Shown here: piece after piece, positions 13,459-36,980 of the stretch
Position numbering within the stretch: position 1 is the first letter of the stretch
Layout: every line of letters starts with the position of its first letter
Virus record (IMG/VR): IMGVR_UViG_3300035492_000302
Span: 1-36,980 of that record
Reading direction: 5' to 3' (one strand)
Source of the DNA: a virus
Length of the DNA stretch: 36,980 nt
Notes under the pieces: model-generated
Databases searched by the model: none
What the model was told of the DNA's origin: nothing
Seen by the model: only the letters and a program-made list of their open reading frames with translations
Position numbers and translations under genes: made by a program

Positions 13459-13463
13459 GATGT

Positions 13464-14390
13464 TCAGATCTCCATAAGGTTGATAGACCAGCGCAGAACC
13501 ACCGCATCGGCAGCGCTGGCAAGGGTTACACGAAAGCCGTTGCTCGCCCGGGCGCTGATAGACAACGCATCCGATGGCAATGGCGCGCCCGTGGCAGAGA
13601 GCGCATCGAGCGTGAGCCTGTAGCCATCGTTCGGTAAGGAATAGGGAAGCGCCACGAGAATGCTGGCCGGGCTGTTTAGTACGGCAGGGAAGCTTGCTTC
13701 GACGCGGCGAACATCTGTCATGGAAACCGAGTCGAGGGATGGATCGACGCTTGATGTGTTGCCAGCGGGTACGGTGATCCGATACAGCGCCAGCGCATCA
13801 GCGGGTGCGTCGACCCCGAGCATGGTCACGCCAAACTCAATGCCCTCGACTGCAGCGGCGTTTTCGCGCAGGTACACGGTGCATGTCTGGTTGGTTGCGC
13901 CCGGGTTGGGCGGCACCGATGCAGCATTCAGACGTTCGCGCACTGAAAAGCGCCGCCCCTTGAGAAACAGAACGCCGGCAGCCAGATTCAGGTTCCGCGC
14001 TGCATTAGTTGATTTTGTGACCGACAAGCCAGAGACTACGCCGCGATTGGCCAACTCAATCTGCCCTGACTGGTGGCGGTAACGAAGCGTTTTGCGCAAC
14101 TCAGTATCGGCCAGCGCGCTGCGCTCCAAAAGGTCGCGGACAAAGTAGTGCAAGGCGTTCTGATAGTCATGATCCTGAGAGCCGATGCGCTGATCCATCC
14201 CGGCAAGCCGGTTAGGTAATGAGCCGCTGTCGCCAGCCGCTGACTCAAGCTCTTGCTCTACCGCAGTTTGTCGATTATCAAGATCTGCAAAATTCTGGTC
14301 TATTTCTTCGTAGCGCGTGTTCCACAACGATGGAACAGCATCAGGCTCGTTGTTTGGGATGGGGGTGATATTTTGATTCGGCAAGGTCAT
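13464..14390 (-). CDS. Putative tail fibre protein
   Basis: 308 aa. The call rests on its position after the collar-domain gene and on the N-terminal PSLWNTRYEEIDQNFADLDNR, which is fibre-like. Confidence 0.5.
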   Translation of the reverse strand: MTLPNQNITPIPNNEPDAVPSLWNTRYEEIDQNFADLDNRQTAVEQELESAAGDSGSLPNRLAGMDQRIGSQDHDYQNALHYFVRDLLERSALADTELRKTLRYRHQSGQIELANRGVVSGLSVTKSTNAARNLNLAAGVLFLKGRRFSVRERLNAASVPPNPGATNQTCTVYLRENAAAVEGIEFGVTMLGVDAPADALALYRITVPAGNTSSVDPSLDSVSMTDVRRVEASFPAVLNSPASILVALPYSLPNDGYRLTLDALSATGAPLPSDALSISARASNGFRVTLASAADAVVLRWSINLMEI

Positions 14391-14404: not shown

Positions 14405-14782
14405 TTAATAGCGCAGGGTGATGCTGATTTCGTAGCGCTCGTCGCTTTCCTTGAGCTTGGGTGCGAAGGTTTTGAAGCCGACAACTTTTCCGTCCTCGTC
14501 CAGCAGCGCGGCCTCGGAGACGCGCGCGCCCACAAGCTCGGCCTCCTCCAGCGCTCCCCTGCCGGTGGTTTCAAGCGCGTCGCGGGTGACAGTTGTCAGT
14601 GGTTTACGCAGCAGCTCGTTCCAGAGCGTGGTGCGGTTCGGATCCGGCGATTTCGGTGTGAGATCGGGGTTGTGCCCGCCATCGCCAAATGCCATGTAGA
14701 AAATGCGCTTGACTGGCGTGCCGTCATGAGCCTGGCGTGCCAGGCGAAGACGGTAGTCGTAAGCGGTGACCGCTTCAGCCAT
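14405..14782 (-). CDS. Tail-collar fibre N-terminal-domain protein (P2 gpH N-domain-like)
   Basis: IFYMAFGDGGHNPDL...LWNELLRK resembles the P2 H N-terminus (MAVGDGGG...L..EVWR). It lies directly after gene I. Confidence 0.6.
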   Translation of the reverse strand: MAEAVTAYDYRLRLARQAHDGTPVKRIFYMAFGDGGHNPDLTPKSPDPNRTTLWNELLRKPLTTVTRDALETTGRGALEEAELVGARVSEAALLDEDGKVVGFKTFAPKLKESDERYEISITLRY

Positions 14783-20744: not shown

Positions 20745-21226
20745 CAGATCAGCTCCACAGTCAGGTGGGCTCGACCTACTATGTCCAGCACGGCCCAGCG
20801 GGCATTTCGGCGAGCGTCCGAGATCGAATCGGCAAGCTCATCGGCAAGACGGTCTCCGGCGCCGGTCGTATCAAAATCGCGATACCGCTCAATCAGGTCA
20901 GCGCGTGCGGCGTAGTAAACGGCGCGCTTGTAGTGGCTAAGCAAAACGCTGGCTTCGTTGATCTGCGCCGCCGGCACCAGGTCAAGACTCGTATAGCCCG
21001 CATCGATCTGCGCCTGTTTCCAATCGGCCAGATCGCGATTGGTCAGCGCCATTGCCACAACGATGGATTCAAGCAGACGATCATTGCTTACGGTGCCATC
21101 GAGCCGAACGACCCGGCGCACGTCGCTCAGATCGACATCAGGAAAGAAGCCGTCGTTTTTTACTGGCTGCGGTTCCTGACTCTCGACCCACTGGTGCTGG
21201 GGTTCGGTAGTGGCCATAAAGCTCAC
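20744..21226 (-). CDS. L: Head completion protein L
   Basis: 160 aa, between M and X; gpL-like. Confidence 0.8.
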   Translation of the reverse strand: MSFMATTEPQHQWVESQEPQPVKNDGFFPDVDLSDVRRVVRLDGTVSNDRLLESIVVAMALTNRDLADWKQAQIDAGYTSLDLVPAAQINEASVLLSHYKRAVYYAARADLIERYRDFDTTGAGDRLADELADSISDARRNARWAVLDIVGRAHLTVELI

Positions 21227-21996: not shown

Positions 21997-23022
21997 TCAG
22001 ACTCCGCCGGTATCGGCAGTAATTTCGATGTTTTCAAGCAGGCAGCCTGCACCGAAGTCCTCGACGACGTACGCATCGTTTGAGGACTCGTAGTTCTCGA
22101 TTCGGTCTCGACGTGGGTTGTCCATGATGTGGCGCCGGCGTGCGCCGATCTGGTAGTAGATCGACAAATTATCCAGCGGGGTGATCATGATGGTCTTGGC
22201 CGGGAAGAACGGCACGGCTACAGCGGTCAAACCGCCAAGGCGCTTCTGGCTCATAATGACCTGGGCGGCCAGTGTGTCGGTTGGCTTGTGATCGGCGTCG
22301 ATCAATGTGAAGTACTTCTCGTGCAGCAAATCGCGTGAAACCAGCGCCACCAGGCCTGGGCTCTGGCGATGCCAGGGGTCAATCAATGAGGCTACTGCGT
22401 CAAACACCAAGGCGTCCAGGTTCTTGTAGTCGCCGGCGCTGCCGATCGCGATTTTGCCACTGGCCGGCACCACTTCGGCAAGCACACGCGCCGGCGCAGA
22501 CTCACGATAGTGCTGCAACCAACCTTTGTTTACGTCTTGCAAAAGCGGGTTCGTGGTTCGGTTCGATGTGGGCGCGCGCGAGGTTCCGTTAAAACCGACC
22601 ATCATGCGGTCAAGCGACTGGCGCAGCAAAATAGCATCGCGCATGCGCGCCTGAAAATCGGGAAACTTGGCCCACGCATCGATTTTTGCGTATCGAACGT
22701 GCGTGTCATAGTTCATCTGGGTGCAGTTGTAAGGCTGATCATCCAGGGTGGATGGGTCGGTTGTTTGGCGATCGGTCGTGGTTGTGTCGGTAGTGCCGGC
22801 AATGGTGCTGCCAATGCCCAGCCCGAGCTTTTCGCCCTGCTGCTCGCGCACGCCGATAATGTTGATTCGCCCAAGGAACTCGTTGGACTCTTGCAGTTTG
22901 GTTTCTAAGCGCTGCTGAACCGAGGGTTCTACAGTGAATTGCGTGTTGGCGTCAGGGATGCCGTTGAGCTTGGCTACTTGCTCGACATAGGCGTTGAACG
23001 CGGCGCGGGTATCGTTATGCAT
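21997..23022 (-). CDS. N: Major capsid protein N
   Basis: 341 aa, between O and M; P2-family capsid length and order. Confidence 0.85.
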   Translation of the reverse strand: MHNDTRAAFNAYVEQVAKLNGIPDANTQFTVEPSVQQRLETKLQESNEFLGRINIIGVREQQGEKLGLGIGSTIAGTTDTTTTDRQTTDPSTLDDQPYNCTQMNYDTHVRYAKIDAWAKFPDFQARMRDAILLRQSLDRMMVGFNGTSRAPTSNRTTNPLLQDVNKGWLQHYRESAPARVLAEVVPASGKIAIGSAGDYKNLDALVFDAVASLIDPWHRQSPGLVALVSRDLLHEKYFTLIDADHKPTDTLAAQVIMSQKRLGGLTAVAVPFFPAKTIMITPLDNLSIYYQIGARRRHIMDNPRRDRIENYESSNDAYVVEDFGAGCLLENIEITADTGGV

Positions 23023-24103: not shown

Positions 24104-25864
24104 ATGCTTGAATCGATGCCCCCGCCCCAACATGACAACCGACGACTGGCCCGTTTTCTTTATTTTCAGGGCTGGCGCATCTCGTCGATCGCCGAATACT
24201 TGGGCGAGGCGCGCACGACCGTTTCAAGCTGGAAAGAGCGCGATGACTGGGAAAAGGTGCCGCCGGTCGAGCGTATCGAGCTGGCACTTGAAGCAAGGCT
24301 TGTCCAGCTGATCGTCAAGCCGGAAAAAACCGGCGGAGACTATAAAGAAATCGATTTGCTGGGTCGCCAGGCCGAACGTTTGGCAAGGATACGTCGGTAC
24401 AACAACGGTGGCAATGAACTTGATCTGAACCCGAAAATCGCCTCACGCAACGCCTCGCCCAAGCGCAAGTACATGCGCAACGAGTTCAGCGAAGAGCAGG
24501 CCCAGAAGCTGTCAGACGCTTTCCGTGATTCGCTTTTTGACTACCAGAAAGTGTGGCTGCGCAACAGCAGCCAGCGCACCCGGGTCATCCTAAAAAGCCG
24601 ACAGATCGGGGCCACCTGGTACTTTGCCCGCGAGGCGCTGGCTGACGCCATCGAGACGGGCCGCAATCAGATCTTTCTTTCGGCCTCCAAGGCGCAGGCG
24701 CACGTTTTCAAACAGTACATCGTGCAGTTCGCCCGCGAAGCGGCCGACGTCGATCTAAAGGGCGATCCTATTGTTTTATGGAATGGCGCGCACCTCTATT
24801 TTCTAGGCACCAATGCGCGCACGGCCCAGGGCTACCACGGAAATTTTTACTTCGACGAATTTTTCTGGACGAACAAGTTTCAAGAGTTGAACAAAGTGGC
24901 CAGCGGCATGGCCATGCACAAGAAGTGGCGCAAAACCTACTTCAGCACACCCAGCAGCACCAGCCACGAGGCCTACCCATTCTGGAACGGAGAAATGTTC
25001 AACAAGCGCCGGCAAAAGGCCGATAAGCGGTTGTTTGATGTATCGCACCAAGCACTGGCTGGCGGGCGCGTGTGCCCTGACCAGGTGTGGCGCCAGATCG
25101 TCACCATCATGGATGCCGAGGCCGGAGGTTGCGACCTTTTCGACATCGATGAGCTGCGCAACTATGAGTACAGCCCGGAAGATTTTCAGAACTTGTTGAT
25201 GTGCCATTTCATCGACGATACGGCCTCGATATTTTCTTTTTCCGAACTGCAGCGCTGCATGGTCGACTCCTGGGAAGAGTGGTCGGATTTCAAGCCGTTT
25301 GCTATACGCCCGGCAGGTCACCGAGCAGTGTGGATCGGCTACGACCCGTCACACACTGGTGACAGTGCGGGTCTAGTGGTGGTGCTTCCCCCGGGCATCA
25401 CAGGAGGCAAGTTTCGCGTGATCGAGCGCCACCAGTTTCGGGGCCTGGACTTTGCTGCGCAGGCCGAATTCATTGAGGGTCTGACAAAAAAATACAACGT
25501 GCAATACATCGGTATCGACTCGACCGGCCTTGGCCAGGGCGTTCTGCAGCTGGTCAGACAGTTCTACCCGGGGGTGCGCGAGCTGAACTACTCGCCCGAA
25601 GTAAAAACCCGCCTGGTGCTCAAGGCCAAAGACGTTATCAGTAAAGGGCGCCTGGAGTTCGATGCCGGATGGACCGATATGTGTCAGTCGTTCATGACCA
25701 TACGCAAAACGCTCACGGCCAGCGGGCGCAAGGTCACCTACGACGCCAGCCGTAACGAAGAAACCGGCCACGCCGACCTGGCCTGGGCATGCATGCACGC
25801 ACTCGATAACGAGCCGCTTGAGGGCAGCTCGGGACACAACAGAAGCTTTATGGAGATCTCCTGA
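24104..25864 (+). CDS. P: Terminase large (ATPase) subunit P
   Basis: 586 aa. RRLARFLYFQGWRISSIAEYLG...SSWKERDDW is a gpP-like N-terminus. The start could instead be M5 at 24116. Confidence 0.9.
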   Translation: MLESMPPPQHDNRRLARFLYFQGWRISSIAEYLGEARTTVSSWKERDDWEKVPPVERIELALEARLVQLIVKPEKTGGDYKEIDLLGRQAERLARIRRYNNGGNELDLNPKIASRNASPKRKYMRNEFSEEQAQKLSDAFRDSLFDYQKVWLRNSSQRTRVILKSRQIGATWYFAREALADAIETGRNQIFLSASKAQAHVFKQYIVQFAREAADVDLKGDPIVLWNGAHLYFLGTNARTAQGYHGNFYFDEFFWTNKFQELNKVASGMAMHKKWRKTYFSTPSSTSHEAYPFWNGEMFNKRRQKADKRLFDVSHQALAGGRVCPDQVWRQIVTIMDAEAGGCDLFDIDELRNYEYSPEDFQNLLMCHFIDDTASIFSFSELQRCMVDSWEEWSDFKPFAIRPAGHRAVWIGYDPSHTGDSAGLVVVLPPGITGGKFRVIERHQFRGLDFAAQAEFIEGLTKKYNVQYIGIDSTGLGQGVLQLVRQFYPGVRELNYSPEVKTRLVLKAKDVISKGRLEFDAGWTDMCQSFMTIRKTLTASGRKVTYDASRNEETGHADLAWACMHALDNEPLEGSSGHNRSFMEIS

Positions 25865-26953: not shown

Positions 26954-27151
26954 CTACTGCCGTTCTAGAAGCGCCCTTTCGTGAGCCTGGTTCAGGCGGT
27001 CAACCCAGGGCTGCATCAGTGCATGTACGTGATGTCCCGGAACCTGCTCGCCATCTACCTTGGCCAGCAGATCCTGCAGGGCTAGCAAGCCGATCAAGGC
27101 GTCTTCCATCAAATCGAAGTACACCCGTGTGTGAAGTGGCTGGTTAATCAT
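26954..27151 (-). CDS. Hypothetical 65-aa protein downstream of ant
   Basis: Internal start M29 of ORF 26954..27235. It overlaps the ant stop by 8 nt. Confidence 0.45.
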   Translation of the reverse strand: MINQPLHTRVYFDLMEDALIGLLALQDLLAKVDGEQVPGHHVHALMQPWVDRLNQAHERALLERQ

Positions 27152-28064
27152 GGCTGCCTCCGGTGTGATGATCTGCCGCACCTTGGAACACAGCGCCTTG
27201 ATCGTCGCTTTCTGATGTGCCGCTAGAGCTTTCACCCCAGGCCTGCGGCGCCCTTTCCTCGTTCTTGAACAGCCAGCAGCGCACTGACTTTTCCGTCAGT
27301 CCACTGTTGACCACGGTGCCTGGCGAAAGAAAGCGGGGTCGGCGGCTGGCCCGCATGGCGCGCAACAGATCCTTTCGGCTCATGGCGTTAATACCGCAGG
27401 CGTGCGCGGCATCCAGCAGCAGGTTCGGGTTGATGGCGATCAGCTCTGGATCACGCGAGTGGTTCATAGGGTAGCCGGCAGCGCCAAGCACTGCCACCAG
27501 ATCCCAGAACCGGCCAACGATGGGCGGTTCGCCCGGATCATTCTTGCCGATGGCCGACATGGGCGGGGTCTCGATGCCCTGGGCCAACAGCACGACGTTA
27601 AGTTGCTCCCAAAGCGTCTTGCGAACGACTGGATGGGTTTCAACCTTGAGCTTGTCCATCAGGCGCCAGCTGTGCCGCTGGCCAGCATAGTCGGGTCGCG
27701 GCTTCTTGCCTGGCATGATGTAGCTGCCGGTTTTGCGCAGGGTAGGCAGTACGTCTTCAAACACCCAGCGCTCGAACCGTTCGGCCGCCGGCAGGTGGCT
27801 GTTGACCATCAGCCGGAACATATCGGGCTCGCTGATAATGCGAGCCTCTTGTATCCGCCCCAGACTATCCACGATGGGGTGGTGTTTCACCACCCCACGG
27901 CAATGCTGCTTAAGCGCATTCACCGTGTCGCTGTAGCCCAACGCTTCGGCAACATCTTTGCCAACAAACCATACCTTGCCGTCTTCGTAAACGGTACGTA
28001 CAGCCTGCTGCTCGAATTCAAAGGTGGTGATCTGGGCGGAGTCGCCCTGGTAGTGTTCAGTCAT
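27144..28064 (-). CDS. BRO-N-domain antirepressor-like protein with a primase-C-terminal-like domain
   Basis: The N-terminus FEFEQQAVRTVYEDGKVWFVGKDVAEALGYSD is the Bro-N pattern. Residues ~186-267 align with the last ~96 aa of the primase-helicase (FWD..., NHxR.P..IA.N, VVNS, RCW.F). Confidence 0.8.
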   Translation of the reverse strand: MTEHYQGDSAQITTFEFEQQAVRTVYEDGKVWFVGKDVAEALGYSDTVNALKQHCRGVVKHHPIVDSLGRIQEARIISEPDMFRLMVNSHLPAAERFERWVFEDVLPTLRKTGSYIMPGKKPRPDYAGQRHSWRLMDKLKVETHPVVRKTLWEQLNVVLLAQGIETPPMSAIGKNDPGEPPIVGRFWDLVAVLGAAGYPMNHSRDPELIAINPNLLLDAAHACGINAMSRKDLLRAMRASRRPRFLSPGTVVNSGLTEKSVRCWLFKNEERAPQAWGESSSGTSESDDQGAVFQGAADHHTGGSHD

Positions 28065-28071
28065 GGTAGAG

Positions 28072-28337
28072 CTCCTGTGAGATTAAACCCAGCCGCCCGA
28101 TGCTAAACGGGGTGGGCAGGGCACGTGCGGGTTAGCATACCGGTCACAGGGTCCGGCGGGCCTTGCGGCCCCCCGCACGGCCTGCCCATAGAAGGCAATG
28201 CCATGAGGAGCACCAAAAGCCGCGTACCAATCTAGTGATGGCGCGGCTATTAGCGCCTGTGAACTCGGGATGCTAAACCCGACTGCCAATGGTATTGGCA
28301 GTGCCCTGACGATAGCCCGGGAAGGCGAACAAGTCAA
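28072..28337 (-). promoter_or_regulatory. ant leader: promoter, a1/b1, hairpin plus U-run, c4-like core, a2/b2 over the SD
   Basis: Elements in minus-strand order: promoter TTGACT-17-TATCGT (28337->28309); a1 at 28281->28267; b1 at 28262->28256; hairpin 28248->28218 followed by UUUU; a2 at 28112->28099; b2 at 28080->28074, overlapping the SD AGGAG at 28076->28072. Confidence 0.65.
28112..28190 (-). ncRNA. c4/CI-type antisense RNA core, copy 1
   Basis: The ~79-nt core folds into four elements: P1 GGGCAGG/CCUGCCC, P2 UGCGGG/CCCGCA, hairpin GGGCC-GCAA-GGCCC and hairpin CCGG-ACCCUGUGA-CCGG. It carries b' (CCUGUGA) and a' (AUGCUAACCCG), which are complementary to the flanking a1/b1 and a2/b2. It is paralogous to 36488..36569, with compensatory stem changes. 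Confidence 0.7.
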
Positions 28338-28373
28338 GACTGGAAGGCTGTTAAGCCATCCCGATGAGCTTTG

Positions 28374-28403
28374 ATTGTAGCAAAAGGTGCGTTTAATCGC
28401 ACC
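28374..28403 (-). promoter_or_regulatory. Second upstream promoter candidate with an 18-bp palindromic operator
   Basis: Extended -10 TGCTACAAT (28382->28374) lies directly downstream of the perfect palindrome GGTGCG-TTTAAT-CGCACC (28386..28403). The palindrome arms match the Pe dyad at 2524..2541. Confidence 0.35.
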
Positions 28404-28599
28404 ATTTTTATTTATAGGTGCGCAACATCGCAAGCGCATGGGCTCAAACGCTTGGCTGGCAGGCATCCCAGGATTTTCGCACCAGGCACGCCCAGCAGGC
28501 CCTCTTTCAGCACCTACGCCCCAAGAATCGCGCTACCCTCCGCGCCTGCGATCAAAGTTTGTTGCAAACGCCAAGACGCAACGGACACGACGATGGGAT

Positions 28600-28945
28600 G
28601 GGTAAAAATAAAAGTTGACCTTCGGAACAGTGTAACCTTCGAAATCGTCAGGTTTTCGACTATCTAACTTGTTGATTTCATGCCTGTTTTTTGGTCACGG
28701 TAGCAGCGTCACCTGACGTAACCTGTACTGTAACCGAAATACTAAGCCTATGATTTTTATAGATATTATTTTTTAAAAAAGTTTCTATCATCTACCGTAA
28801 TCGGGTCACGCTCCGATTACATAAAAAGTTACCGTACTACAAATTATTAAAACAAGGCGCAGTCTATCTATCCAGGCATTTCATTACCTAAGTTATAAAA
28901 GTTACAGTGTTCCCGACACCCCCCAGCCTAAATTTTTAATCTACA
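28600..28945. other. AT-rich non-coding island with iterated motifs (candidate attP arm, origin or cos region)
   Basis: No credible ORF. Motif copies: GTTAC(A/C)GT-type elements inverted at 28628-28636, 28717-28723 and 28727-28735, and direct at 28828-28836 and 28901-28909; TAAAAGTT at 28609, 28822 and 28896; inverted repeat gtaatcgg/ccgattac at 28797-28820. An extremely AT-rich centre lies at 28745-28790. Confidence 0.5.
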
Positions 28946-29143
28946 AAGAGCCGGGCAAACTACCTCGATCTGTTGCTGAACACTGCTCTTGCCCAGCTGT
29001 TGCAGGCGACGTCATCGGTCGCAGTCTCACCCTGTTTATGGCCAATGAATAAGGCCGCGCTAATGTGGCCCGGTTGACCTGGTAAACGCGCCTGGCCAAG
29101 GCCGCTTGGCACCTGGCCACAAGTAGTCTTGGCGTATTTTTTT

Positions 29144-29154
29144 GGGGGACTTTT
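29144..29154 (+). repeat. GGGGGACTTTT 11-mer, P-arm copy (candidate integrase arm-type site)
   Basis: Exact 11-mer, extendable to the 14-mer GGGGGACTTTTGGG shared with 29402..29415. It lies ~130 nt upstream of the tRNA-like core. Confidence 0.45.
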
Positions 29155-29282
29155 GGGTAAGTTTTCTGTACACGACTGTGCAGGACAGTACAAAACGGTG
29201 TATCAGAGCGCACATTTAGGTAGTAAGACGTGCGAAAATACGCTATATATCAAGGCGTTATGTGCGGCTTTTATCACCCTTA

Positions 29283-29331
29283 TTGGCTACGAACCAAGGG
29301 GTCGTGGGTTCGAATCCTGCCAGCCGCGCCA
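29283..29331 (+). other. attP core: 3' portion of a tRNA-Arg(ACG) gene (anticodon arm to CCA)
   Basis: ttgg-CTACGAA-ccaa anticodon arm (anticodon ACG), T-loop GGTTCGAATCC, acceptor 3' strand plus gCCA. It closely resembles the E. coli tRNA-Arg(ACG) 3' half as I remember it. The upstream part lacks a D-arm, so it is not a complete tRNA. Confidence 0.55.
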
Positions 29332-29360
29332 GAATTGCCCTGTTAAATCAACAGGTTAAA

Positions 29361-29397
29361 ACCGCCTAGGGGCGCAATCCCTAGGCGGTTTTTCTTT
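29361..29397 (+). terminator. Strong hairpin plus T-run (bidirectional terminator; contains the int stop codon)
   Basis: accgcctaggg gcgcaat ccctaggcggt is an 11-bp perfect stem followed by TTTTTCTTT. On the minus strand it is followed by TTTTAA. Confidence 0.65.
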
Positions 29398-30583
29398 GTG
29401 TGGGGGACTTTTGGGGGACTTTTCCGCCAACAACCTCGATCTGCGATCGGCGCAATATGGCCAGCAGATTGATAGTCTCCCCCACGCAACCCTCTTCTTT
29501 GATCAGTTCCAGTGCCGCATAAACTTCGCGGATCTGGGCTACTGCGTAATGGCTGGTCATGTCTCGTTTCGAGTGCCAAAGAATCTCATCTTGCGTACGC
29601 TCGGAAACGCCGGCGTTTCGCAAGCGCATTCCGACCGTGTGCCGCAAGTCGTGAACGTGCAGATCGCCCAGCCCTGCAGAGGCTCTGGCGTTCTGCCAGG
29701 CCGTGTTGTGCATATCACTGATCGGCAAGTACTTTGGCTTGCTGCCGAGCTTATTTGACACGCGCCTTGACCAGGTAAACACCCGCTCAGGGTGGCGGCC
29801 GCGCTGCGCGTCAATGATCTGCTGCCCAAGGCTGTTGCAAAAAAGAAGCCGTTCGGACTTGCGGCCTTTGACGTACTCACGCGGCACCACAAAAACCGAG
29901 ACTGTCGTCTGTTCAGACAGGGGCACCTGAACTTCCCAGCGCCAACGTAGCTGGCACACGACATTCTTACGGGCACCGCTGTTCAGGCAGAACATGGCCA
30001 TGTCGACCAGGTGGGTCGGCAGGTGCTGCATCAACAACTTTTGTTCGGCCCATGTGATTGGCTGTGGTGCGCGCTGGTCGCTCAGATCAAGCATCGTTAT
30101 TTTGGGTGCCGATTCCAGCCAGGTCAGACGATTCTCAGGAAACCGCCATTGGGTCGCCGCCAGGCGAAGGATCCTGCCGACAATCGATAGCGTGTTGTTC
30201 AGGGTTTTGTTTTTGATGCCCTGGCGCTTACGCTCGCGAATGAAGCCGGCAAGTGTTTCGTCGCATATATCCTGAAGTGTTAAAGAGCCCAGCCTCTGAA
30301 CGACCGGCAGTAACAGATAGGCGTCTGTTTCAGCCGATGGCATGTTTTTGGCTTCTTTCTCTTCCAGATAACGGGTTGCTGCGCGCTCGAAGGTGACATC
30401 CGGCCTTGCGGCCGGGTTGTCGGAAAACTGCTGGATGCTGAATTGTTCCCGCGTCAGGTAGTCTCTCGCCTGCCTGTGATCCGTAAAGCCACGCTTTCGA
30501 ATGCGCCTGTTTCGGTACTGACAGTCGACCTGCCATGTGCCGTCCGATTCCTGGTAGATGCCTGTTTGTTTGACTCGTACCAT
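29381..30583 (-). CDS. int: Tyrosine recombinase / phage integrase
   Basis: 400 aa. The C-terminal catalytic-region motifs HDLRHTVGMRL and ...LWHSKRDMTSHY (R..HxxR..Y pattern) are present. It is adjacent to the tRNA-like attP. Confidence 0.9.
   Translation of the reverse strand: MVRVKQTGIYQESDGTWQVDCQYRNRRIRKRGFTDHRQARDYLTREQFSIQQFSDNPAARPDVTFERAATRYLEEKEAKNMPSAETDAYLLLPVVQRLGSLTLQDICDETLAGFIRERKRQGIKNKTLNNTLSIVGRILRLAATQWRFPENRLTWLESAPKITMLDLSDQRAPQPITWAEQKLLMQHLPTHLVDMAMFCLNSGARKNVVCQLRWRWEVQVPLSEQTTVSVFVVPREYVKGRKSERLLFCNSLGQQIIDAQRGRHPERVFTWSRRVSNKLGSKPKYLPISDMHNTAWQNARASAGLGDLHVHDLRHTVGMRLRNAGVSERTQDEILWHSKRDMTSHYAVAQIREVYAALELIKEEGCVGETINLLAILRRSQIEVVGGKVPQKSPTQRKTA
29402..29423 (+). 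repeat. GGGGGACTTTT x2 in tandem, P'-arm copies (inside the int 3' end)
   Basis: Two abutting exact copies ~75 nt downstream of the core. Confidence 0.45.
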
Positions 30584-30792
30584 TTCATTTCTCCTGAATT
30601 GGCACGCTTACTACCTGCAACCAGTTTATACCGATCCCAAAAATCATCGAGGTCCTGCTTTTCGTAAATTATGGATGTACCGGCGCGCACAGCTTTGTCG
30701 CGCAGCTGCGGAATGACAGTTTGCTCAAAGAACCTGCGGCCCACGCCCAGGTAGGCCTGGGCTTCTTTGGTCGTGAATCCGCGCTTGATCAT
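30454..30792 (-). CDS. Excisionase/AlpA-like HTH protein
   Basis: The N-terminal 55 aa (TTKEAQAYLGVGRRFFEQTVIPQL...IYEKQDLDDFW) look like a Xis/MerR-type HTH. The 3' 130 nt overlap int, so the true C-terminus is uncertain. Confidence 0.5.
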   Translation of the reverse strand: MIKRGFTTKEAQAYLGVGRRFFEQTVIPQLRDKAVRAGTSIIYEKQDLDDFWDRYKLVAGSKRANSGEMKWYESNKQASTRNRTAHGRSTVSTETGAFESVALRITGRRETT

Positions 30793-31115
30793 TGGTTGAG
30801 ACCGTCAGCTGTTGAAATGTATTTTTCCATTGCCAAATCGATTTCGGCGTCGGCAAGTTTGCCAGTTAAAACTCGGTAACTGGCCGGATCGCACGCCCAG
30901 TCAACCCGAGTAATGCAAATGTCAACGGATCCATCGCTTTCGGGTTTGGTGGCGTGTCGATATCGCTCTGCATTTTTCTTCCAAGTCTGGACGTCTGGCG
31001 ATTGCATGGCGGCGCGGTAACCGGCAAGAAATAGTTGCCAGTGCGTGTGCCATGGCCATAAACCGTTATGCATTACCCAGAGATCAAAGGCCTCTTGTTC
31101 ATGCGGATCGTTCAT
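30789..31115 (-). CDS. Hypothetical protein
   Basis: 108-aa ORF, ATGA-coupled on both sides. Confidence 0.5.
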   Translation of the reverse strand: MNDPHEQEAFDLWVMHNGLWPWHTHWQLFLAGYRAAMQSPDVQTWKKNAERYRHATKPESDGSVDICITRVDWACDPASYRVLTGKLADAEIDLAMEKYISTADGLNQ

Positions 31116-31786
31116 GCGGAGATCTCCTTTTCAAATGCGCCGATCAGGTTCATAAAGCGTTGAAGGCGCTGGTATTCGGTTGGATCAAGTTTGATGCTGG
31201 CCCAGTTTTTGGTCAGGATGATGGCGCCATTGCTGTGCCACAAAAAAGCAAATGGCTGGCCCGGGGAAAGCTCAGACGACTCTTCTGGCTGCGGGCCTGA
31301 GCTGGTGGCCGAAGCTGTGGCCCCTGCGTCAACAGCGGGCACGGGATTTCGGTCAGACTTTTTGTGATTGATGCGTCGGGGCGTTCCCGCATCGATATCG
31401 ACGCCTGCAGGCGTTTGCGCCTGGCTGGCGACTGGCGGCCGCACAGCCGCTCTGGCCAGCAGACCTTGCCGAGGCTGCAGGTTAGGCTTGGCCCGCTCTG
31501 CGGGTTGTGGCTGCGCCCGTTCCTGATGAATTGGCTCGTCGTCGTCACGCGGCAAGGGCGTGCCGTCACCAAGGGCGAAGTGGTACAGACCGTTGATTTT
31601 TTTCTTTCTCAGCAGGCCGTGATCGATCGACTTGTTCAGTGCCGTGATGACTGCCGAAGAAGGCTGATCCATGGCGGCCGATAGCGGGCCGCTGGCGATC
31701 CATTTGCCCTCTGGCAAAGTTTTCAGGTATTGGATGACACGCCAGGCCAACGTAGCTGGGTGTGGGGTGTAGTCTTTGTTAGTCAT
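31112..31786 (-). CDS. Hypothetical protein (possible N-terminal winged helix, disordered middle)
   Basis: 224-aa ORF in the operon with a P/A/Q-rich central region. Confidence 0.5.
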   Translation of the reverse strand: MTNKDYTPHPATLAWRVIQYLKTLPEGKWIASGPLSAAMDQPSSAVITALNKSIDHGLLRKKKINGLYHFALGDGTPLPRDDDEPIHQERAQPQPAERAKPNLQPRQGLLARAAVRPPVASQAQTPAGVDIDAGTPRRINHKKSDRNPVPAVDAGATASATSSGPQPEESSELSPGQPFAFLWHSNGAIILTKNWASIKLDPTEYQRLQRFMNLIGAFEKEISA

Positions 31787-31817
31787 GGTTCACCTGGTGC
31801 AATTCGGTTGACTGGTG

Positions 31818-32024
31818 TCACTCATCAAAGGGCACAGACTTTTCTTTTAGGCACTTTGTGCACTGAACGGTTTTGGTGCCGTTCCAGGCAATGCCTAGTG
31901 TTTTCCATTGTTGGTGCCGGCAGAACAGGCGCTGGATAAGCACCAGAATGATCAGAAGGACCCAAACGGAAAAGCCGATGAGCGGCAGCAGTATCCCGAT
32001 GAGCAAGGCGGTATGAAGTTCCAT
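31818..32024 (-). CDS. Small membrane protein with a Cys-rich tail
   Basis: 68 aa: one long hydrophobic stretch (LLIGILLPLIGFSVWVLLIILVLI) followed by C...CxxC. Confidence 0.45.
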   Translation of the reverse strand: MELHTALLIGILLPLIGFSVWVLLIILVLIQRLFCRHQQWKTLGIAWNGTKTVQCTKCLKEKSVPFDE

Positions 32025-32026
32025 GG

Positions 32027-32479
32027 TCAGGCCTCTTTAAATTGGTTGATCTTACGGGCCGGCTCCTGGCCGATCAGGGCCGCTTGCCAGGCGGTGTCGT
32101 CGTGCTTTGACCACATAGGGTCGCCAGGCCGGTAGCCGGCAATGACCTTGCCCAGCGTAATAAGTGCTTGGGCAGCGGTAATGGTGACCTTGGGCACGGC
32201 AGGGTCGATGCCTGCCCACAGTGGCGGTTTGTCGATCGCCTGCAAGGCGATGTCGACGCTCAGGCCGTGGCCTTCGGGCATTCTGGCCAGTTGTCCGGCC
32301 AGCATGCGCAGCTGGGCGGCTTGCAGTTCATTGTGCACCAGGCTGGCGTGATGCTCTTTGAGCAGCTTCTCGATTTTGTGCTCGAACTCGGCAAAGGACA
32401 TCAGACGATCCTTTTGCCCTTTGCTCAGGCTGTCACAGTAGGCGTGCATGGCGCTCATGATGTCGCGCTTTCGGTTCAT
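32027..32479 (-). CDS. Hypothetical protein
   Basis: Internal start M27 of ORF 32027..32557 (ATG at 32479). Confidence 0.5.
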   Translation of the reverse strand: MNRKRDIMSAMHAYCDSLSKGQKDRLMSFAEFEHKIEKLLKEHHASLVHNELQAAQLRMLAGQLARMPEGHGLSVDIALQAIDKPPLWAGIDPAVPKVTITAAQALITLGKVIAGYRPGDPMWSKHDDTAWQAALIGQEPARKINQFKEA

Positions 32480-32578
32480 ATTCACGGGTCGACCTCTTTG
32501 GGTAAGGTGTGGGTTGAAGGGCTGGCAGCGGTGCGAAGAGATAGACCTGCATCGCACATTAAGTGATTGGTTCTGTGT

Positions 32579-33160
32579 TTACTGGTCGCCCGCCTGGTCG
32601 AGCAGGTCAGGCTGGTACGGAATGCCGAGTTCGCCGGCAGCTTTTCCGATCATTCGATCAAGCAACTGGCGATCTTTGCTTGAGGCCAGTGCTGTCTTCG
32701 TTCTTAGAAGAGAGTTCACCAACATGTATTGGCGGCGCGTAGCGTCTTGCGCCCGAGCATGATTCAGGTTGAAGGCTGCGCCCAGCTGTTCGTAGTCATG
32801 CAGGGCGTCTGCCCACTCTTCAAGTTTTTGCTCCAGGAATTCCGCTGATGACTCGTTACCATTAACGCGCACTCGCTCCGGATTGATAGACATCAGATAA
32901 GCGGCAACGCGCGAAATTAGAATGCAGGTTTCCTCTCTTTTTTGACCACCTGCACCCCCCTTAAGTAGGGTGCAGACCCCCAAAAATCTGACCAGATAAG
33001 GGTTGCCAGTCACTTTTTTTCGCTGCTGTTCCCAGCGCAGGCCAAATAATTCAACGATGGGCTTAAGCGGTGTACAGTCTTCGCCCTTGTTGTTTTTGAC
33101 CACATCCAGTTGCATGCCTGCGTAGTTGATCGAAATGGTAAGTCGATTGTTTTCGTTCAT
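32579..33160 (-). CDS. P22 Ant N-terminal-domain-like protein (paralog 3)
   Basis: TCILISRVAAYLMSINPERVRVNG...EEWADALHDYE; shares these motifs with the two paralogs at the contig junction. Confidence 0.6.
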   Translation of the reverse strand: MNENNRLTISINYAGMQLDVVKNNKGEDCTPLKPIVELFGLRWEQQRKKVTGNPYLVRFLGVCTLLKGGAGGQKREETCILISRVAAYLMSINPERVRVNGNESSAEFLEQKLEEWADALHDYEQLGAAFNLNHARAQDATRRQYMLVNSLLRTKTALASSKDRQLLDRMIGKAAGELGIPYQPDLLDQAGDQ

Positions 33161-33199
33161 TGGTAAAGCTCCTTTTCGCTGGTTTTCTGCCTTACCCGG

Positions 33200-33493
33200 T
33201 TAGTCGTCGTCACCGCTTGCGCGGCGTTTTATGTCGGGCTGGGCGCTGTTTTTGCCGGGCAGCGGGCTGATGTATAGGGTGTTGCCCTGGGCGTGCAGGT
33301 TGTAGCGCCGATGCGGGTCGGCCTGGTTGGCTTGTGCCAGGTTAAGCAGGCAGGTGGCGATGGCCGGATTCTGCATGGCCTGTTCCAGGGTGCCGCGAAG
33401 GCGCGCCTGGCGATGCGCTTGCTGCAGCTCATGCCAGGTGGCCTTTCCCTGACGGCGGGCTGCCGGGACGATGATTTTTTCTGTATCGCTCAT
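33200..33493 (-). CDS. Hypothetical protein
   Basis: 97-aa ORF with an ATGA overlap with the primase stop. Confidence 0.5.
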   Translation of the reverse strand: MSDTEKIIVPAARRQGKATWHELQQAHRQARLRGTLEQAMQNPAIATCLLNLAQANQADPHRRYNLHAQGNTLYISPLPGKNSAQPDIKRRASGDDD

Positions 33494-36192
33494 TTGGCTG
33501 TGACTCCCTTCTCAAAGACCCAGCAACGCTCCGATGTGCTGATGTTTTTTAGTTCGCGGGCCTTGATGGCGCTGTTGACGACTTTCTGGCCCATGTAGCG
33601 ATGGCGCTTGCTGGTTTTGAGCAAGGCCTTGAGTTCGCGCAGCGGTGGCATTTGTTGTTTGTGCTCGATGGCCACCTGCAGCACGTGGTTCAGGTTCAGG
33701 GCGATTTCCTGCGGGCTGCGGGCGTGGTTAAGCGTGGGCTTTTCTTCGTCACCGTTCAGGTAGTAGTACATGTCCCAGAACTCTTGCACCATGGGGTGAT
33801 CGGAGTCGATGGCTTGCTCGCGCTGCTTGGCCATGGCCAGGATTTGCAGCCGCAGTTGCTGGTGCTGTTCGTCGCTGAGGCGAACGACCAGGCGCAGCGC
33901 GTCGGCCAGCGCCAGCAGCTGGCCATGGCATTTGGCGATACGTACGGTGCGGATCTCGGGATCTTGCAGCAGCTGGCGCTCGTACATGGGCGCTTTTTCG
34001 TCGACCAGTTCTAGTATCTGGGCCTCACGCAAGGTGGCCGCCAGAATGAAGCCCGAAACCGTATCCATGGGCATGCGTTCGAGCAGCTTGGCTGCCTCGG
34101 CGGTGTCGCGGCTTTGTGTGGAACGGTCAAAGTACAGATGCACGATACGCGTCATGACCGCATCGGAGGCCGAAACAGGGTTGTTCTGGCTGATAACGAT
34201 AGCCCCGCGAAAGGGCGGCTCGTAGGTTTCGTTGCCGCCGTTGGCTACGCCACGGCTGCGCACGCTGCGCCCGTTATAAGCGGTTTTCAGCTCGTCCCAG
34301 TCAAAGGCGCGCACCTTGGGGTTGTTCTCGCCGGTTTGCTCACGGTCTGACTCGATCAGTACGACCGGCATGCCCGAGACCTGGGCAAAGTTGCGCGCCC
34401 GGGCTGCGGCCGTGGATTTTGACGGGTCAAAGCCTTCGTAGTCTTGCCGACCGAACAGCTTCCACATGAATTCGATCAGCGTGGTTTTGCCTGACCCGGC
34501 CTCCCCTACGATCTCAAGGAAAGGGAACGATTTCTGGCTGGCGCGGATCTGCTCGGCAAACAGGCTGCCAAACCAGAACGTGAGCGCGGCCAGCCCTTTA
34601 GCACCAAAGGCACTGGCCATCGGTTCGATCCAGCCACGGTCGTATTCGGTGCGATCGTCGTTGATCTGCAGGTTGACCGACTGGCTGAGCGTCTTGACCG
34701 AGAGCTTGCCCATGTCGAAATAGTCTTCGTCGTTGATCTTGTGCACCTTGCCCTTGGCCACCGCGAGCTTGCCCAGGATGTAGCAGCCGTACTCGCGGCT
34801 GTAGCCGGTGTAGTCGACGGTTTCGACCTGTTTGATGGCGTACAGCTGGCGCTCCAGGGCGCGATCAAGGTGCATGTTCGAGCCCGAATACATGGCCCCA
34901 GGCGCGATGGCCAGCAGGCGTTTTTTGAATTCCGAGGCGCTGGACAGCTGCGCGCTGGTGAAGGTGTTCTTGACGGCGCCGCCGTCGTGGGGGAATTCCA
35001 CCCGGAAGTAGTACCAGGACTCGTCGGTAATGCGGTTGGCCTGGTAGTACAACGGGTAAGGGTGGCAGTTGGCGATTTGCCGGATGCCGCCCGATTCTTG
35101 CATGGCCTGCTCGCGCAGCTGCTCGGGATCCATGTCGGGGTGCTCTTCGGCGATGCGGTCAAGCGCCCGGTGATAGGCATCGACGTTCAGGCTGAACCAG
35201 TACAGCCGACGGCCGAACTCAAATTCAAATTCGCTGCGTTTGGGGTTGTGGCCATACATGAGCATGGCTTTCTCGGTGGCCGTCTGGGCCATGAGCAGCG
35301 CACCGTTATACAGATAGTCTTTCAGGCCTTCGGTGCCTAGCCTGTGCTTGGTGGCGTCGGGCTCGGACCGATCGAGCATGTGCAGGTCGTTCCAGTCTTG
35401 CTTGCGCTGACCCTGCTGGCCAATGAACGCGGCCTTGGCTGGCCAGCCGTCGGTGCGGGCGCGTGTAACGTGCTTGCGCATGTAGTCGCGCCCTGCTTTG
35501 TCGCCGTCGTATGCAAAAACGAGTTTGACCGGGTTGCCGCCGCGTTCTTCGAGCAGCTTGGCCAAGGCCTCGTGCGGGTAGTTGCTGCAGCTGATGTTGG
35601 CCGCCGCTGCCACACCGTGGTGCCACAGCGCGATGGCATCAAAGATGCCTTCGACCAGCCACAGCTCTTCGGTCTGCGTCAGATCCAGGCCAGGCGGCGT
35701 CCACCACTGGCCACGAAAGGTGCCCCCGCGCTGGATGTGCGCTTTCATCTTGCCAAAGCGCTCGGGCTGGTCGATCAAGCGCTCCCACCAGGTGTTGGCC
35801 ACTTTGAAGCGCACGGTGGCCGAACCGATCTGGCGTGCCGGGTCGAAAAAGTTCTCTTGGGTGTAGGCCCCGCGCAGGCGGGCGATGTCAAAGCCCCGGC
35901 CGATGGCCAGATAGGCATCGGCAGCGGCGTTGGGGTTGGTGGTTTGTTCGGTGGCGTAGCGCTTGGACCAGTTTTCAAACAGGTCGGGGTACAGCTCTTT
36001 AACGTGGGCCTCGTAGCCGCAGTTATTCAAGCGACCACATTTGACCACCCAGGGCGATTCGGCATGCGTCCAGAGCTCTTTCTTGCGGCACGATGGGCAG
36101 ATGCCCCCGCGCAGGTAGCCGGCGCGTTCCTTGAACTCGAATTCGGTCAGGCGGTCGCTGAGCTCTTTCAAAAGGGCGTCATTCATGCTCAT
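33490..36192 (-). CDS. Primase-helicase (P4 alpha-like replication protein)
   Basis: I chose M53 of ORF 33490..36348. Motifs: Zn ribbon CPSC...CGRLNNC; TOPRIM-like LVEGIFDAIAL and YDGDKAGRD; Walker A GEAGSGKTT. Confidence 0.85.
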   Translation of the reverse strand: MSMNDALLKELSDRLTEFEFKERAGYLRGGICPSCRKKELWTHAESPWVVKCGRLNNCGYEAHVKELYPDLFENWSKRYATEQTTNPNAAADAYLAIGRGFDIARLRGAYTQENFFDPARQIGSATVRFKVANTWWERLIDQPERFGKMKAHIQRGGTFRGQWWTPPGLDLTQTEELWLVEGIFDAIALWHHGVAAAANISCSNYPHEALAKLLEERGGNPVKLVFAYDGDKAGRDYMRKHVTRARTDGWPAKAAFIGQQGQRKQDWNDLHMLDRSEPDATKHRLGTEGLKDYLYNGALLMAQTATEKAMLMYGHNPKRSEFEFEFGRRLYWFSLNVDAYHRALDRIAEEHPDMDPEQLREQAMQESGGIRQIANCHPYPLYYQANRITDESWYYFRVEFPHDGGAVKNTFTSAQLSSASEFKKRLLAIAPGAMYSGSNMHLDRALERQLYAIKQVETVDYTGYSREYGCYILGKLAVAKGKVHKINDEDYFDMGKLSVKTLSQSVNLQINDDRTEYDRGWIEPMASAFGAKGLAALTFWFGSLFAEQIRASQKSFPFLEIVGEAGSGKTTLIEFMWKLFGRQDYEGFDPSKSTAAARARNFAQVSGMPVVLIESDREQTGENNPKVRAFDWDELKTAYNGRSVRSRGVANGGNETYEPPFRGAIVISQNNPVSASDAVMTRIVHLYFDRSTQSRDTAEAAKLLERMPMDTVSGFILAATLREAQILELVDEKAPMYERQLLQDPEIRTVRIAKCHGQLLALADALRLVVRLSDEQHQQLRLQILAMAKQREQAIDSDHPMVQEFWDMYYYLNGDEEKPTLNHARSPQEIALNLNHVLQVAIEHKQQMPPLRELKALLKTSKRHRYMGQKVVNSAIKARELKNISTSERCWVFEKGVTAK

Positions 36193-36436
36193 GCCTGCCC
36201 CCGTTGATCTGGGCCAGGTACAGCGCCTCGGCTTGTTCCTGGGCGGCTTTGACGCGGGCAGCCTGGTTGGCCAGCACGATGCCCAGGCTTTCGAGCCTGA
36301 TGCCGTCTGCGGCCGCGCTCTGGCCGCCGGCATTGGCCAGTTCGGCAATCAGGCGCAGTTCGTGGTGAAGGGTGTAAAGGTTCTGTTCGAGCGTGTGCAG
36401 CTCGTGCGCGAGCGCGCTGGGGTGTTTACCAGTCAT
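36179..36436 (-). CDS. Small coiled-coil leader protein, translationally coupled to the primase gene
   Basis: 85 aa with an AAGGAG SD. Its 3' end overlaps the primase start by 14 nt. Confidence 0.55.
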   Translation of the reverse strand: MTGKHPSALAHELHTLEQNLYTLHHELRLIAELANAGGQSAAADGIRLESLGIVLANQAARVKAAQEQAEALYLAQINGGRHEHE

Positions 36437-36442
36437 GACTGA

Positions 36443-36719
36443 CTCCTTTTGTCGTGGTAGGAGTCCACCGCCTCGCTGCTAAACGGGGTGGGCGGACACA
36501 TGCGGGTTAGCAGACCGGGACAAAGGAACCGGCAGGGGCTTGCGCCCCTCCCGCACGGCCCGCCCATAGAGGGTGCCATGCTGCTGCGCACAGACGAAAA
36601 GAAAGCCGCGTGAACGGGATTTTGGCGGCTGTGCGCCTTTGTCATCCGGGCTGCTAAACCCGTGCGCTGGTTGTTTGCCAGCACAGGGGAAGTATAGCCC
36701 GGATGTAGCGGTTGGTGAA
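36443..36719 (-). promoter_or_regulatory. Primase-operon leader: promoter, a1/b1, hairpin plus U-run, c4-like core, a2/b2 over the SD
   Basis: Elements in minus-strand order: promoter TTCACC-17-TATACT (36719->36691); a1 at 36662->36648; b1 GACAAAGG at 36643->36636; hairpin 36630->36604 followed by UUCUUUU; a2 at 36488->36475; b2 GACAAAAGG at 36453->36445, overlapping the SD at 36448->36443. Confidence 0.65.
36488..36569 (-). ncRNA. c4/CI-type antisense RNA core, copy 2
   Basis: The ~82-nt core folds into four elements: P1 GGGCGG/CCGCCC, P2 UGCGGG/CCCGCA, hairpin AGGGGC-GCAA-GCCCCU and hairpin CCGG-UUCCUUUGUC-CCGG. It carries b' (CCUUUGUC) and a' (CUGCUAACCCG). Confidence 0.7.
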
Positions 36720-36735
36720 GGGTGTGATGCACGGG

Positions 36736-36980
36736 TCAAGCCTCCAGTGGCAGTTCCGTCTGGCCAGACAGCGGCACAGGCACACCCATTTCTGCATAGA
36801 TTTGGTGTATCAGTGTGGTTAGCGAGGCCCGCTCGCGCGGGCAGCTCGTATGGCCGCGCATCTTGCTCAGCGCCAGCAGATCATGAAGCGTTGATTTTTT
36901 GACGGCGGCACCCTTGGTTTCGTAGTCGTGCAGGGCATCGGCCCATTCCTTGATCTTGACGACCAGACGATCTGCGGCGT
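36736..36980 (-). CDS. C-terminal part of the junction-spanning P22 Ant N-like gene (same gene as 1..452)
   Basis: The frame continues from position 1 through 36853 to the TGA at 36738->36736: ...MRGHTSCPRERASLTTLIHQIYAEMGVPVPLSGQTELPLEA. The full gene is 570 nt (189 aa). Confidence 0.6.
   Translation of the reverse strand, partial: AADRLVVKIKEWADALHDYETKGAAVKKSTLHDLLALSKMRGHTSCPRERASLTTLIHQIYAEMGVPVPLSGQTELPLEA
36854..36980. repeat. Terminal overlap, right copy (identical to 1..127)
   Basis: Same 127-nt string as 1..127. This is consistent with an assembler overlap on a circular molecule. Confidence 0.95.

Follow-up and report, generated by a model that had tools for sequence, protein, structure and literature searches.

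Immunity governed by an antisense RNA of the c4/CI type is textbook knowledge for phages P1 and P7 and for P4. In P1 and P4 the C4-type RNA is cut out by RNase P, the homologous RNAs of P1, P7 and P4 are processed and act in trans, and in P4 control acts via premature transcription termination. The immI region of P1 and P7, in which c4 antisense RNA occurs together with icd and ant, was reportedly treated by Citron and Schuster in 1990. In the annotated sequence of P1 the parts follow one another in the order promoters, a1 (7 nucleotides, nt), b1, the 77-nt c4, a2, b2 and icd, which overlaps ant. The c4 family, its structure, the a1b1 motif and the wide spread of the family in proteobacterial prophages have already been described (Weinberg 2010, PMC2864571). 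Here we report on two such elements found in a stretch of viral DNA of 36,980 nt, positions 1 to 36,980 of the IMG/VR record IMGVR_UViG_3300035492_000302 (referred to below as the window). The window is one complete genome of a P2-like temperate phage with both C4 copies inside it, and the whole is best explained, in our view with high confidence, as two paralogous c4/CI-type antisense-RNA immunity modules in one P2-like phage.

A scan of the window with Rfam gave exactly two matches above gathering score, both to C4 antisense RNA (RF01695, gathering score 45 bits) and both on the minus strand. Copy 1 lies at 28108-28193 (62.0 bits) and copy 2 at 36484-36571 (61.3 bits), each matching the model over its full length with E about 1e-9. 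Alignment to the annotated c4 of P1 places the predicted mature RNAs at 28111-28187 (C4-1, 77 nt) and 36487-36565 (C4-2, 79 nt). Both modules are built in the same order: a promoter-like site is followed by a leader that carries the sites a1 and b1 and a terminator-like hairpin, then by the C4 RNA, and finally by a second pair of sites, a2 and b2. Each RNA contains two recognition segments, a' and b', which are complementary to the a and b sites of its module, respectively. In both modules a2 begins 3-4 nt past the predicted 3' end of the C4 RNA, and b2 overlaps AGGAG or AAGGAG 7-8 nt before the start codon. A defining feature of C4, complementarity of a' and b' to a downstream a2 and b2 with b2 lying on the ribosome-binding site, is present twice.

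In module 1, all parts of which are on the minus strand, a' (GGUAUGCUAA, 28132-28141) and the b' loop (ACCCUGUGA, 28144-28152) have their counterparts in a1 (TTAGCAT, 28270-28276, within a hairpin loop), b1 (TCACAGG, 28256-28262), a2 (TTAGCAT, 28100-28106) and b2 (TCACAGG, 28074-28080), the last overlapping the Shine-Dalgarno sequence AGGAG at 28072-28076. Sequence and complement search together delimit the downstream target region at 28072-28106. In the leader (28213-28315) a hairpin at 28282-28302 precedes the hairpin that holds a1; then come b1 and, at 28215-28248, a terminator-like hairpin that has a U run. The fold of the leader has z = -4.8 and leaves a1 unpaired in the loop. A consensus scan located a sigma-70-like promoter candidate, TTGACT-17-TATCGT (28309-28337), whose position matches that of the annotated c4 promoter of P1 just upstream of the a1 hairpins. 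Directly after b2, with the start codon ATG at 28062-28064, comes the gene for a Bro-N antirepressor-like protein of 306 amino acids (aa; 27144-28064, minus strand), which copy 1 is predicted to gate. Its product matches Pfam Bro-N (E 7e-22) as well as the PHROG anti-repressor Ant families. Since the Bro-N gene follows b2 immediately, with no icd-like open reading frame (ORF) in between, the module departs from the c4-icd-ant order of a P1-type immI region.

Module 2 has the same parts, again on the minus strand: a' (GGUCUGCUAA, 36507-36516), the b' loop (UUCCUUUGUC, 36519-36528), a1 (TTAGCAG, 36651-36657, within a hairpin loop), b1 (GACAAAGG, 36636-36643), a2 (TTAGCAG, 36476-36482) and b2 (GACAAAAGG, 36445-36453), which overlaps the Shine-Dalgarno sequence of a small conserved ORF, orf85 (36179-36436, start codon ATG at 36434-36436). 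The downstream target region, found by the same combination of sequence and complement search, spans 36445-36482. The leader (36599-36697) is built likewise: one hairpin, then the hairpin with a1, then b1, and last a terminator-like hairpin, again followed up by a U run. The promoter-like site TTCACC-17-TATACT (36691-36719), again of the sigma-70-like kind, lies in the gap after an upstream P22_AR_N-like gene, and the consensus scan gave one site against 0.2 expected. Orf85, the gene that copy 2 is predicted to gate directly, takes the position of icd in P1, and its 3' end overlaps the start of the downstream cargo of the module, the gene for a Toprim primase-helicase of 900 aa (33490-36195, minus strand; overlap sequence ATGAGCATGAATGA). 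No Pfam or PHROG match was obtained for orf85, and homologous ORFs of 89-92 aa with 31-37% identity to it precede the primase gene in loci L173, L170 and L169. The primase matches Pfam Toprim_2/Toprim_3 and PHROG_1139, DNA primase (1146 bits); the phiCTX and Ralstonia phage RSY1 primases share 47-54% identity with it, and the primase of Stenotrophomonas phage Smp131 shares 45%. A C4-family RNA in the leader of a primase-helicase operon is the arrangement characteristic of P4, and module 2 shows it.

Comparison of the two copies shows that their RNA cores are about 88-90% identical and that the flanks are far more diverged. A preliminary description of the window, made from the letters alone, had quoted a', b', a1/a2 and b1/b2 sequences for both copies, and all of them are present on the minus strand. 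It had also pointed to co-varying stems around a conserved GCAA loop and P2 stem. Reading of the sequence confirmed that the stem differences are compensatory (GGGCAGG/CCUGCCC in one copy against GGGCGG/CCGCCC in the other, and GGGCC/GGCCC against AGGGGC/GCCCCU), while the GCAA loop and the stem GCCGG/CCGGU are the same in both. Minimum free energy (MFE) folds of both copies give the three-helix C4 shape, with a long P1, P2 bearing the GCAA tetraloop and P3 bearing the b' loop, and a' falls in the junction between P3 and P1. The MFE of mature C4-1 is -50.5 kcal/mol (z = -4.2) and that of C4-2 is -52 kcal/mol (z = -4.5), a' and b' being unpaired in each. The 7-nt a-sites occur nowhere else on the RNA strand of the 37-kb genome, and together with the Rfam scores, the folds and the permutation test given below this excludes a chance resemblance.

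A covariance model was built from the window copies and then iterated; it also recovers P1 c4 and P4 CI. In an alignment of 19 distinct C4 sequences from different phages, which had itself been fitted to this model, so that the pairing figures are to be read with that in mind, 99.5% of cells are paired, against about 40% in slid controls. Both sides change in 17 of the 23 pairs, a result that none of 500 shuffles reached. A protein-coding explanation of the conserved blocks was considered and rejected, the overlapping ORFs of 127, 99 and 86 aa being accounted for by the RNA models.

The recognition segments themselves evolve together with their targets. Among 18 modules, P1 included, a' and b' differ from module to module, and both flanks of each module contain the complements of its own a' and b'. 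Complementarity of a' and b' to their own four sites, summed over these modules, amounts to 528 nt against a permuted mean of 340, and not one of 20,000 permutations reaches the observed value. The mean contiguous complement is 6.9-7.8 nt for cognate and about 4.6 nt for non-cognate combinations. Complements of 6-10 nt to both a' and b' are present in both flanks in all 18 modules and in most of 23 further modules with near-identical scaffolds. Taken together, the Rfam C4 matches, the structural covariation and the co-variation of a' and b' with their targets give good support to selection at the RNA level, as opposed to protein coding, which is what the preliminary description had argued.

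In very close relatives of module 2 the scaffold is 95-97% identical, but the specificity has been switched together with all targets. The a site reads TTGGAAG in L173 and TTGGCAG in L170, where the b site is AACAACGG. Selection for heteroimmunity would be expected to leave just such a pattern of compensated turnover in specificity. Natural a sites that are otherwise the same, such as TTGGCG[T/G/A] and TTGGCA[G/T], differ in their last base, always with a matching a', which hints that this terminal position contributes to discrimination. Identical sites recur in different elements. The b sites of P4, TTCACAGG(AG) at 8393-8400 and 8646-8653 of L176, are the same as the b sites of module 1, and module 2 shares its a site, TTAGCAG, with P7. 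Few a and b words seem to be usable, and their convergence is probably driven by the Shine-Dalgarno constraint on b2.

Both RNAs belong to a single genome, as the preliminary description had stated. The first 127 nt of the window are identical to its last 127 nt (1-127 = 36854-36980), and because of this overlap the contig is circularly closed, with a length of 36,853 bp. The genome has the marks of a P2-like phage (Peduoviridae): its structural genes follow the P2-type order, an Ogr/Delta activator (Ogr_Delta) is encoded at 1967-2236, and an integrase gene is accompanied by attP. The virion module is complete and of P2 type, with portal, terminase, capsid, sheath, tape-measure and gpD genes, and its layout is shared with related loci; portal and terminase are divergent from the O-N-M-L genes, in the same order as in Smp131. 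There is one attP, whose core (29283-29332) equals the 3' end of tRNA-Arg(ACG) and lies just downstream of the tyrosine integrase gene (29381-30583, minus strand, identified by Pfam), between it and module 1. The core agrees in 50 of 50 nt with the 3' end of a tRNA-Arg(ACG) gene that borders a related prophage in L010; in L089 the agreement is 47 of 49 nt. Owing to the position of attP between the integrase gene and module 1, the two modules would come to lie at opposite ends of the integrated prophage.

The closest primase homologs come from Burkholderiales, including Alcaligenaceae, Achromobacter and Bordetella, and the named phages with the most similar C4 cores are Bordetella avium phages, in which C4 stands upstream of antirepressor genes. 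The window is probably a phage of Burkholderiales. Megablast of the 10-kb region against phages returned only matches of about 72%, confined to the primase gene.

How well the two RNAs could tell their targets apart can be judged from the length of contiguous complements. At a1 and at a2 alike, each RNA complements its own site over 7 nt and that of the other module over 6 nt. At b1 the cognate complements are 7 nt (module 1) and 8 nt (module 2), against 5 nt for C4-1 on module 2 and 3 nt for C4-2 on module 1; at b2 the cognate values are 7 and 6 nt, and both cross values are 4 nt. The duplex energy at a2 and b2 combined is about -19.5 and -18.3 kcal/mol for the cognate pairs and about -13.5 and -13.0 kcal/mol for the cross pairs, a gap of some 5-6 kcal/mol that comes nearly all from b. 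As a calibration, P1 and P7 were aligned; two bases differ in a' and two in b', each compensated at a1, a2, b1 and b2. The divergence of the window pair is similar in total to that of P1 and P7, but it is concentrated in b'. Heteroimmunity of P1 and P7 has been attributed to minor immI differences (PMC6906374). Because b' differs clearly, a' differs by one base and the sites of each module match its own RNA, each RNA is expected to act mainly on its own operon, and functional orthogonality of C4-1 and C4-2 appears likely, though with moderate confidence.

These features would be accounted for by the following mechanism. Each module would be transcribed from its own constitutive-looking promoter, and the C4 RNA of about 77-79 nt would presumably be excised by RNase P, as in P1 and P4. 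The processed RNA would then pair, via junction a' and loop b', with a2 and b2 of the mRNA of the same operon. As the ribosome-binding site is covered by b2, the gene that comes first downstream would not be translated, and downstream transcription would probably be curtailed too, through polarity. By pairing with a1 and b1, the RNA probably acts back on the terminator of the leader, or else is itself titrated there. In this way module 1 would gate the Bro-N antirepressor-like protein, the use known from P1, and module 2 would gate orf85 and the primase-helicase, the use known from P4, so that replication would be held off in the lysogen and in superinfecting relatives. With each RNA acting mainly on its own operon, the phage would possess two separately controlled switches. 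What the sequence comparisons show directly is the membership of the family, the structure, the complementarity of the sites, the placement of b2 on the ribosome-binding site, the co-variation among homologs and the presence of both modules in one genome; processing, trans-repression, termination effects and the degree of orthogonality are the parts of this scheme that we infer.

Several observations weigh against the scheme as a whole or against parts of it. Despite exact a1 and b1 complements, the leaders stay below the gathering scores of their Rfam families: c4-a1b1 (RF03163, gathering score 46.7) gives 41.4 bits for module 2 (E 7e-8) and 32.9 bits for module 1 (E 2.5e-5), and isrK (RF01394, gathering score 50) gives 40.6 bits (E 4e-6) and 33.7 bits (E 2.3e-4), respectively. 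As module 1 is devoid of an icd-like leader ORF, its mechanism may be purely translational, and the role of Bro-N as antirepressor of the helix-turn-helix (HTH) repressor candidate of the phage (2495-2989, plus strand) is putative. In module 2, b2 has an extra A in comparison with b1, so that b' can pair with it over 9 nt only around a bulge; without interruption the match extends over at most 6 nt. The two a' segments differ by one terminal base, A28138 in copy 1 and C36513 in copy 2 on the RNA strand, 6 of 7 pairs are kept in the cross combination, and an initial contact between a' and a could form across modules. Finally, the matrix of whole-flank duplex energies is noisy, the cognate combination being best in 11 of 17 rows downstream and in 14 of 17 upstream. 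Such energies proved too noisy in the GC-rich flanks and were replaced by the contiguous-complement counts and the permutation test given above.

The similarity of the a' segments bears on the alternative that survives best, namely that the two RNAs are not orthogonal and that their shared a pairing makes one cross-regulated circuit, with a shared or titrated RNA pool and with b' only tuning the strength. Because a' shares 6 of its 7 pairing bases, each RNA would also bind the a sites of the other operon, and the a-site duplex energies indeed barely differ (-7.4 to -9.5 kcal/mol in cross and -8.3 to -12.0 kcal/mol in cognate combinations). A natural precedent is provided by the P1-like phage vB_EcoM-Ro157c2YLVW, described below, where two modules with identical a and different b sites show that sharing of a in one genome is tolerated. 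However, it is the b sites that overlap the ribosome-binding site, and there cross complements of 3-5 nt stand against cognate complements of 6-8 nt, with b2 energies of -5 to -6 kcal/mol against -9 to -11 kcal/mol. The natural variation of the last a-site base, always accompanied by a matching a', suggests a role in discrimination, and P1 and P7 are heteroimmune with only 2+2 differences (PMC6906374). We therefore consider a single cross-regulated circuit unlikely, while giving it more weight than any other alternative.

It is also conceivable, if improbable, that the elements are mainly cis-acting leaders or attenuators, in which a' and b' pair within the molecule and switch the terminator or access to the ribosome-binding site. 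The homologous RNAs of P1, P7 and P4 undergo processing and work in trans, the three-helix scaffold, which is very stable, is conserved together with its RNase P-type ends, and the rapid compensated turnover of specificity in close relatives is what immunity between phages predicts. Nevertheless, a single transcript carries all the sites in a span of about 250 nt, a terminator-like hairpin is placed between b1 and C4, and a possible cis-regulatory use of some c4 RNAs was raised by Weinberg et al. (PMC2864571).

It is extremely improbable that one copy is a decaying remnant of a duplication or that a phage and a satellite, each with one copy, were assembled next to each other. The integrase gene does lie between the copies, and module 2 resembles satellite P4 in its arrangement. 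However, the Rfam scores of the two copies are alike, each copy has retained its four matching target sites and has a positional ortholog in other P2-like phages, and a phage next to a P4-like satellite is rejected in view of the 127-nt overlap that closes the contig, the single P2-type gene set with its one attP and a gene order matching that of Smp131.

Two paralogous immunity modules thus remain the best explanation, and a more far-reaching version of it deserves mention, even if we hold it only tentatively. According to this version, the modules would be two insulated RNA-immunity channels on one scaffold, a P4-type brake on replication and a P1-type brake on Bro-N; diversifying selection for heteroimmunity would act on the last a base and on the b loop, and the proteins gated by the two RNAs might come together at a common partner or at the origin of replication. 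Residues 181-267 of the Bro-N protein align to residues 801-895 of the primase of the same phage with 32% identity over 96 aa (BLASTP E 1e-9), and the Bro-N protein also weakly matches the C-terminus of PHROG_1139 'DNA primase'. In view of this shared C-terminal domain, both RNA-gated proteins may bind the same partner or DNA site. The low-GC gap at 28200-29400 was checked for iterons or an origin, and nothing convincing was seen there.

Next, we consider the occurrence of the modules in related phages. Calls of C4 absence rest on the custom covariance model with default search filters and on flanks of at most 10 kb, and prophage loci cannot display both module positions at once. Among the primase loci searched (5 viral ones from a single query and 160 anchored by alignment), C4 was found within 10 kb of the primase in 10 and upstream of the primase only in L106 and L117. 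An Rfam scan of the seven of these loci with the most similar primases showed no C4. A targeted look at the closest primases revealed the succession of C4, small ORF and primase gene in L173, in L170/L171 and in L169; in L172, another close primase relative, no C4 was found by the primase. At the other position, C4 beside the portal gene was found in none of 80 portal-anchored relatives with the custom model and default filters; as this model detects P1 c4 and P4 CI, its sensitivity was adequate. A single protein query for Bro-N relatives in IMG/VR found none. A larger protein search yielded L283 with C4 and L284 and L285 without it. L283 carries the closest full-length Bro-N homolog (62% identity) in the same position beside the portal gene. 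The C4 in front of it is of the module 1 type, its a site reading TTAGCGT and its b site TCACAG. Positional orthologs of both modules are thus present in other P2-like phages. The phage of the window brings the two lineages together, and its modules are not a recent tandem duplication.

Two C4 modules in one genome are known from elsewhere too. In L054 (Azorhizophilus paspali) two convergent modules, 21059-21156 (plus strand) and 22315-22422 (minus strand), lie 1.2 kb apart; they differ in both a and b, and each is matched to its own targets. The P1-like phage vB_EcoM-Ro157c2YLVW (NC_050153.1) has two c4-icd modules, at about 360-600 of L287 on the minus strand and at about 100-340 of L288, whose a site is TTAGCAG in both and whose b sites, GTACATG and GATTGTG, differ and are compensated. 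The NC_050153.1 record contains no annotation of either c4 RNA. A perfectly identical tandem duplicate of C4 is seen in L033, a metagenome-assembled genome of Silanimonas, at 13365-13465 and 14627-14727, about 1.26 kb apart; it could be an assembly artefact. From the literature, a table for the Xylella fastidiosa De Donno genome lists two C4 matches 11 kb apart (PMC12189769), and Acinetobacter baumannii carries many diverged C4-like small RNAs (sRNAs; PMC5320573). We found no paper that analyses pairs of c4 modules as dual immunity.

The preliminary description had held that a duplicated and diverged pair of immunity RNAs was new for P2-like phages. Worded in this way the claim goes too far, as the family has long been known and pairs with two specificities are present in Ro157c2YLVW and L054. 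What stands is narrower: we have not found described in the literature a P2-like phage that combines a P1-type and a P4-type module of diverged specificity, one directed to an antirepressor-like gene and the other to a primase operon.

Some further observations concern the genome and its relatives. JGI metagenome contig L002 carries the same genome segment as the window. A strong terminator-like hairpin (29358-29392) overlaps the stop codon of the integrase gene. The early region encodes three paralogous proteins, all on the minus strand (32579-33160; 36736-36853 joined to 1-452; 449-925), two of which match the P22_AR_N antirepressor N-terminal domain; one paralog spans the circular junction of the contig and ends directly upstream of the module 2 promoter. 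Smp131 (L001), which is without C4, has an Rfam match to sRNA-Xcc1 at 24352-24439 (73.5 bits, model length 87), inside an annotated 'anti-repressor' ORF about 1 kb upstream of the primase gene. The sRNA-Xcc1 family is listed beside C4 and isrK matches in Xylella tables. Other Rfam matches in related loci are Burkholderiales-2 RNA in L174 (1425-1498, Bordetella phage IFTN7), int-alpA RNA in L054 (16914-16980) and abiF RNA in L106 (7173-7222).

For annotation, the window offers a clean example of c4/CI immunity in a P2-like phage, in a place where automated procedures would call spurious ORFs across the RNAs (for instance 28083-28466 and 36433-36732). For evolution, it indicates that the P1-type use, directed to an antirepressor, and the P4-type use, directed to a primase operon, can coexist in one genome on one scaffold. 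Close relatives shift specificity by compensated substitutions at five places at once, in a' or b' and in the matching targets, which makes the modules a compact natural case of RNA-RNA co-evolution. Should the RNAs be orthogonal in vivo, they and their relatives would offer ready-made pairs of sRNA and target on a constant scaffold, and if the two channels are truly insulated, the modules would amount to a natural library of orthogonal sRNA-target pairs.

Compared with the immI region of P1 and P7, both modules of the window belong to the same Rfam family and have the same order of parts. Module 1 would also gate a gene of the antirepressor type, and specificity variants arise, as between P1 and P7, by compensated changes in a' or b' and in all four targets. 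The differences are equally clear. P1 is a 94-kb plasmid prophage, whereas the window is a 37-kb integrating P2-like myovirus. The window genome has two modules, of which the first has no icd-like leader ORF and the second, in which the small ORF overlaps a primase gene and not ant, would gate the primase operon instead of ant.

As for P4, Rfam recognises its CI RNA as C4 (74.9 bits) and its leader as isrK, and the layout of a1/b1, C4 and a2/b2 on the ribosome-binding site is shared. As in module 2, the RNA heads an operon ending in a Toprim primase-helicase (alpha in P4). P4, however, is an 11.6-kb satellite without structural genes, in contrast to the full P2-like phage with its own virion module that is not a helper-dependent satellite, and its primase bears only a remote resemblance to that of the window (Toprim and P-loop segments 23-25% identical). 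The model of the IsrK leader RNA of Salmonella Gifsy-1 (RF01394) spans a hairpin, the a1 hairpin, b1 and a terminator; both window leaders match it below the gathering score, whereas P4, L106 and L117 have isrK and C4 in tandem above threshold. In Ro157c2YLVW, unlike in the window, both modules precede icd-type genes and have a common a site. None of Ro157c2YLVW, L054 and Xylella De Donno is a P2-like phage pairing antirepressor-like and primase-operon targets. The window thus presents no new mechanism but a new example of the known c4/CI mechanism, in which, judging from its parts, module 1 would be the P1-type and module 2 the P4-type deployment of one RNA scaffold.

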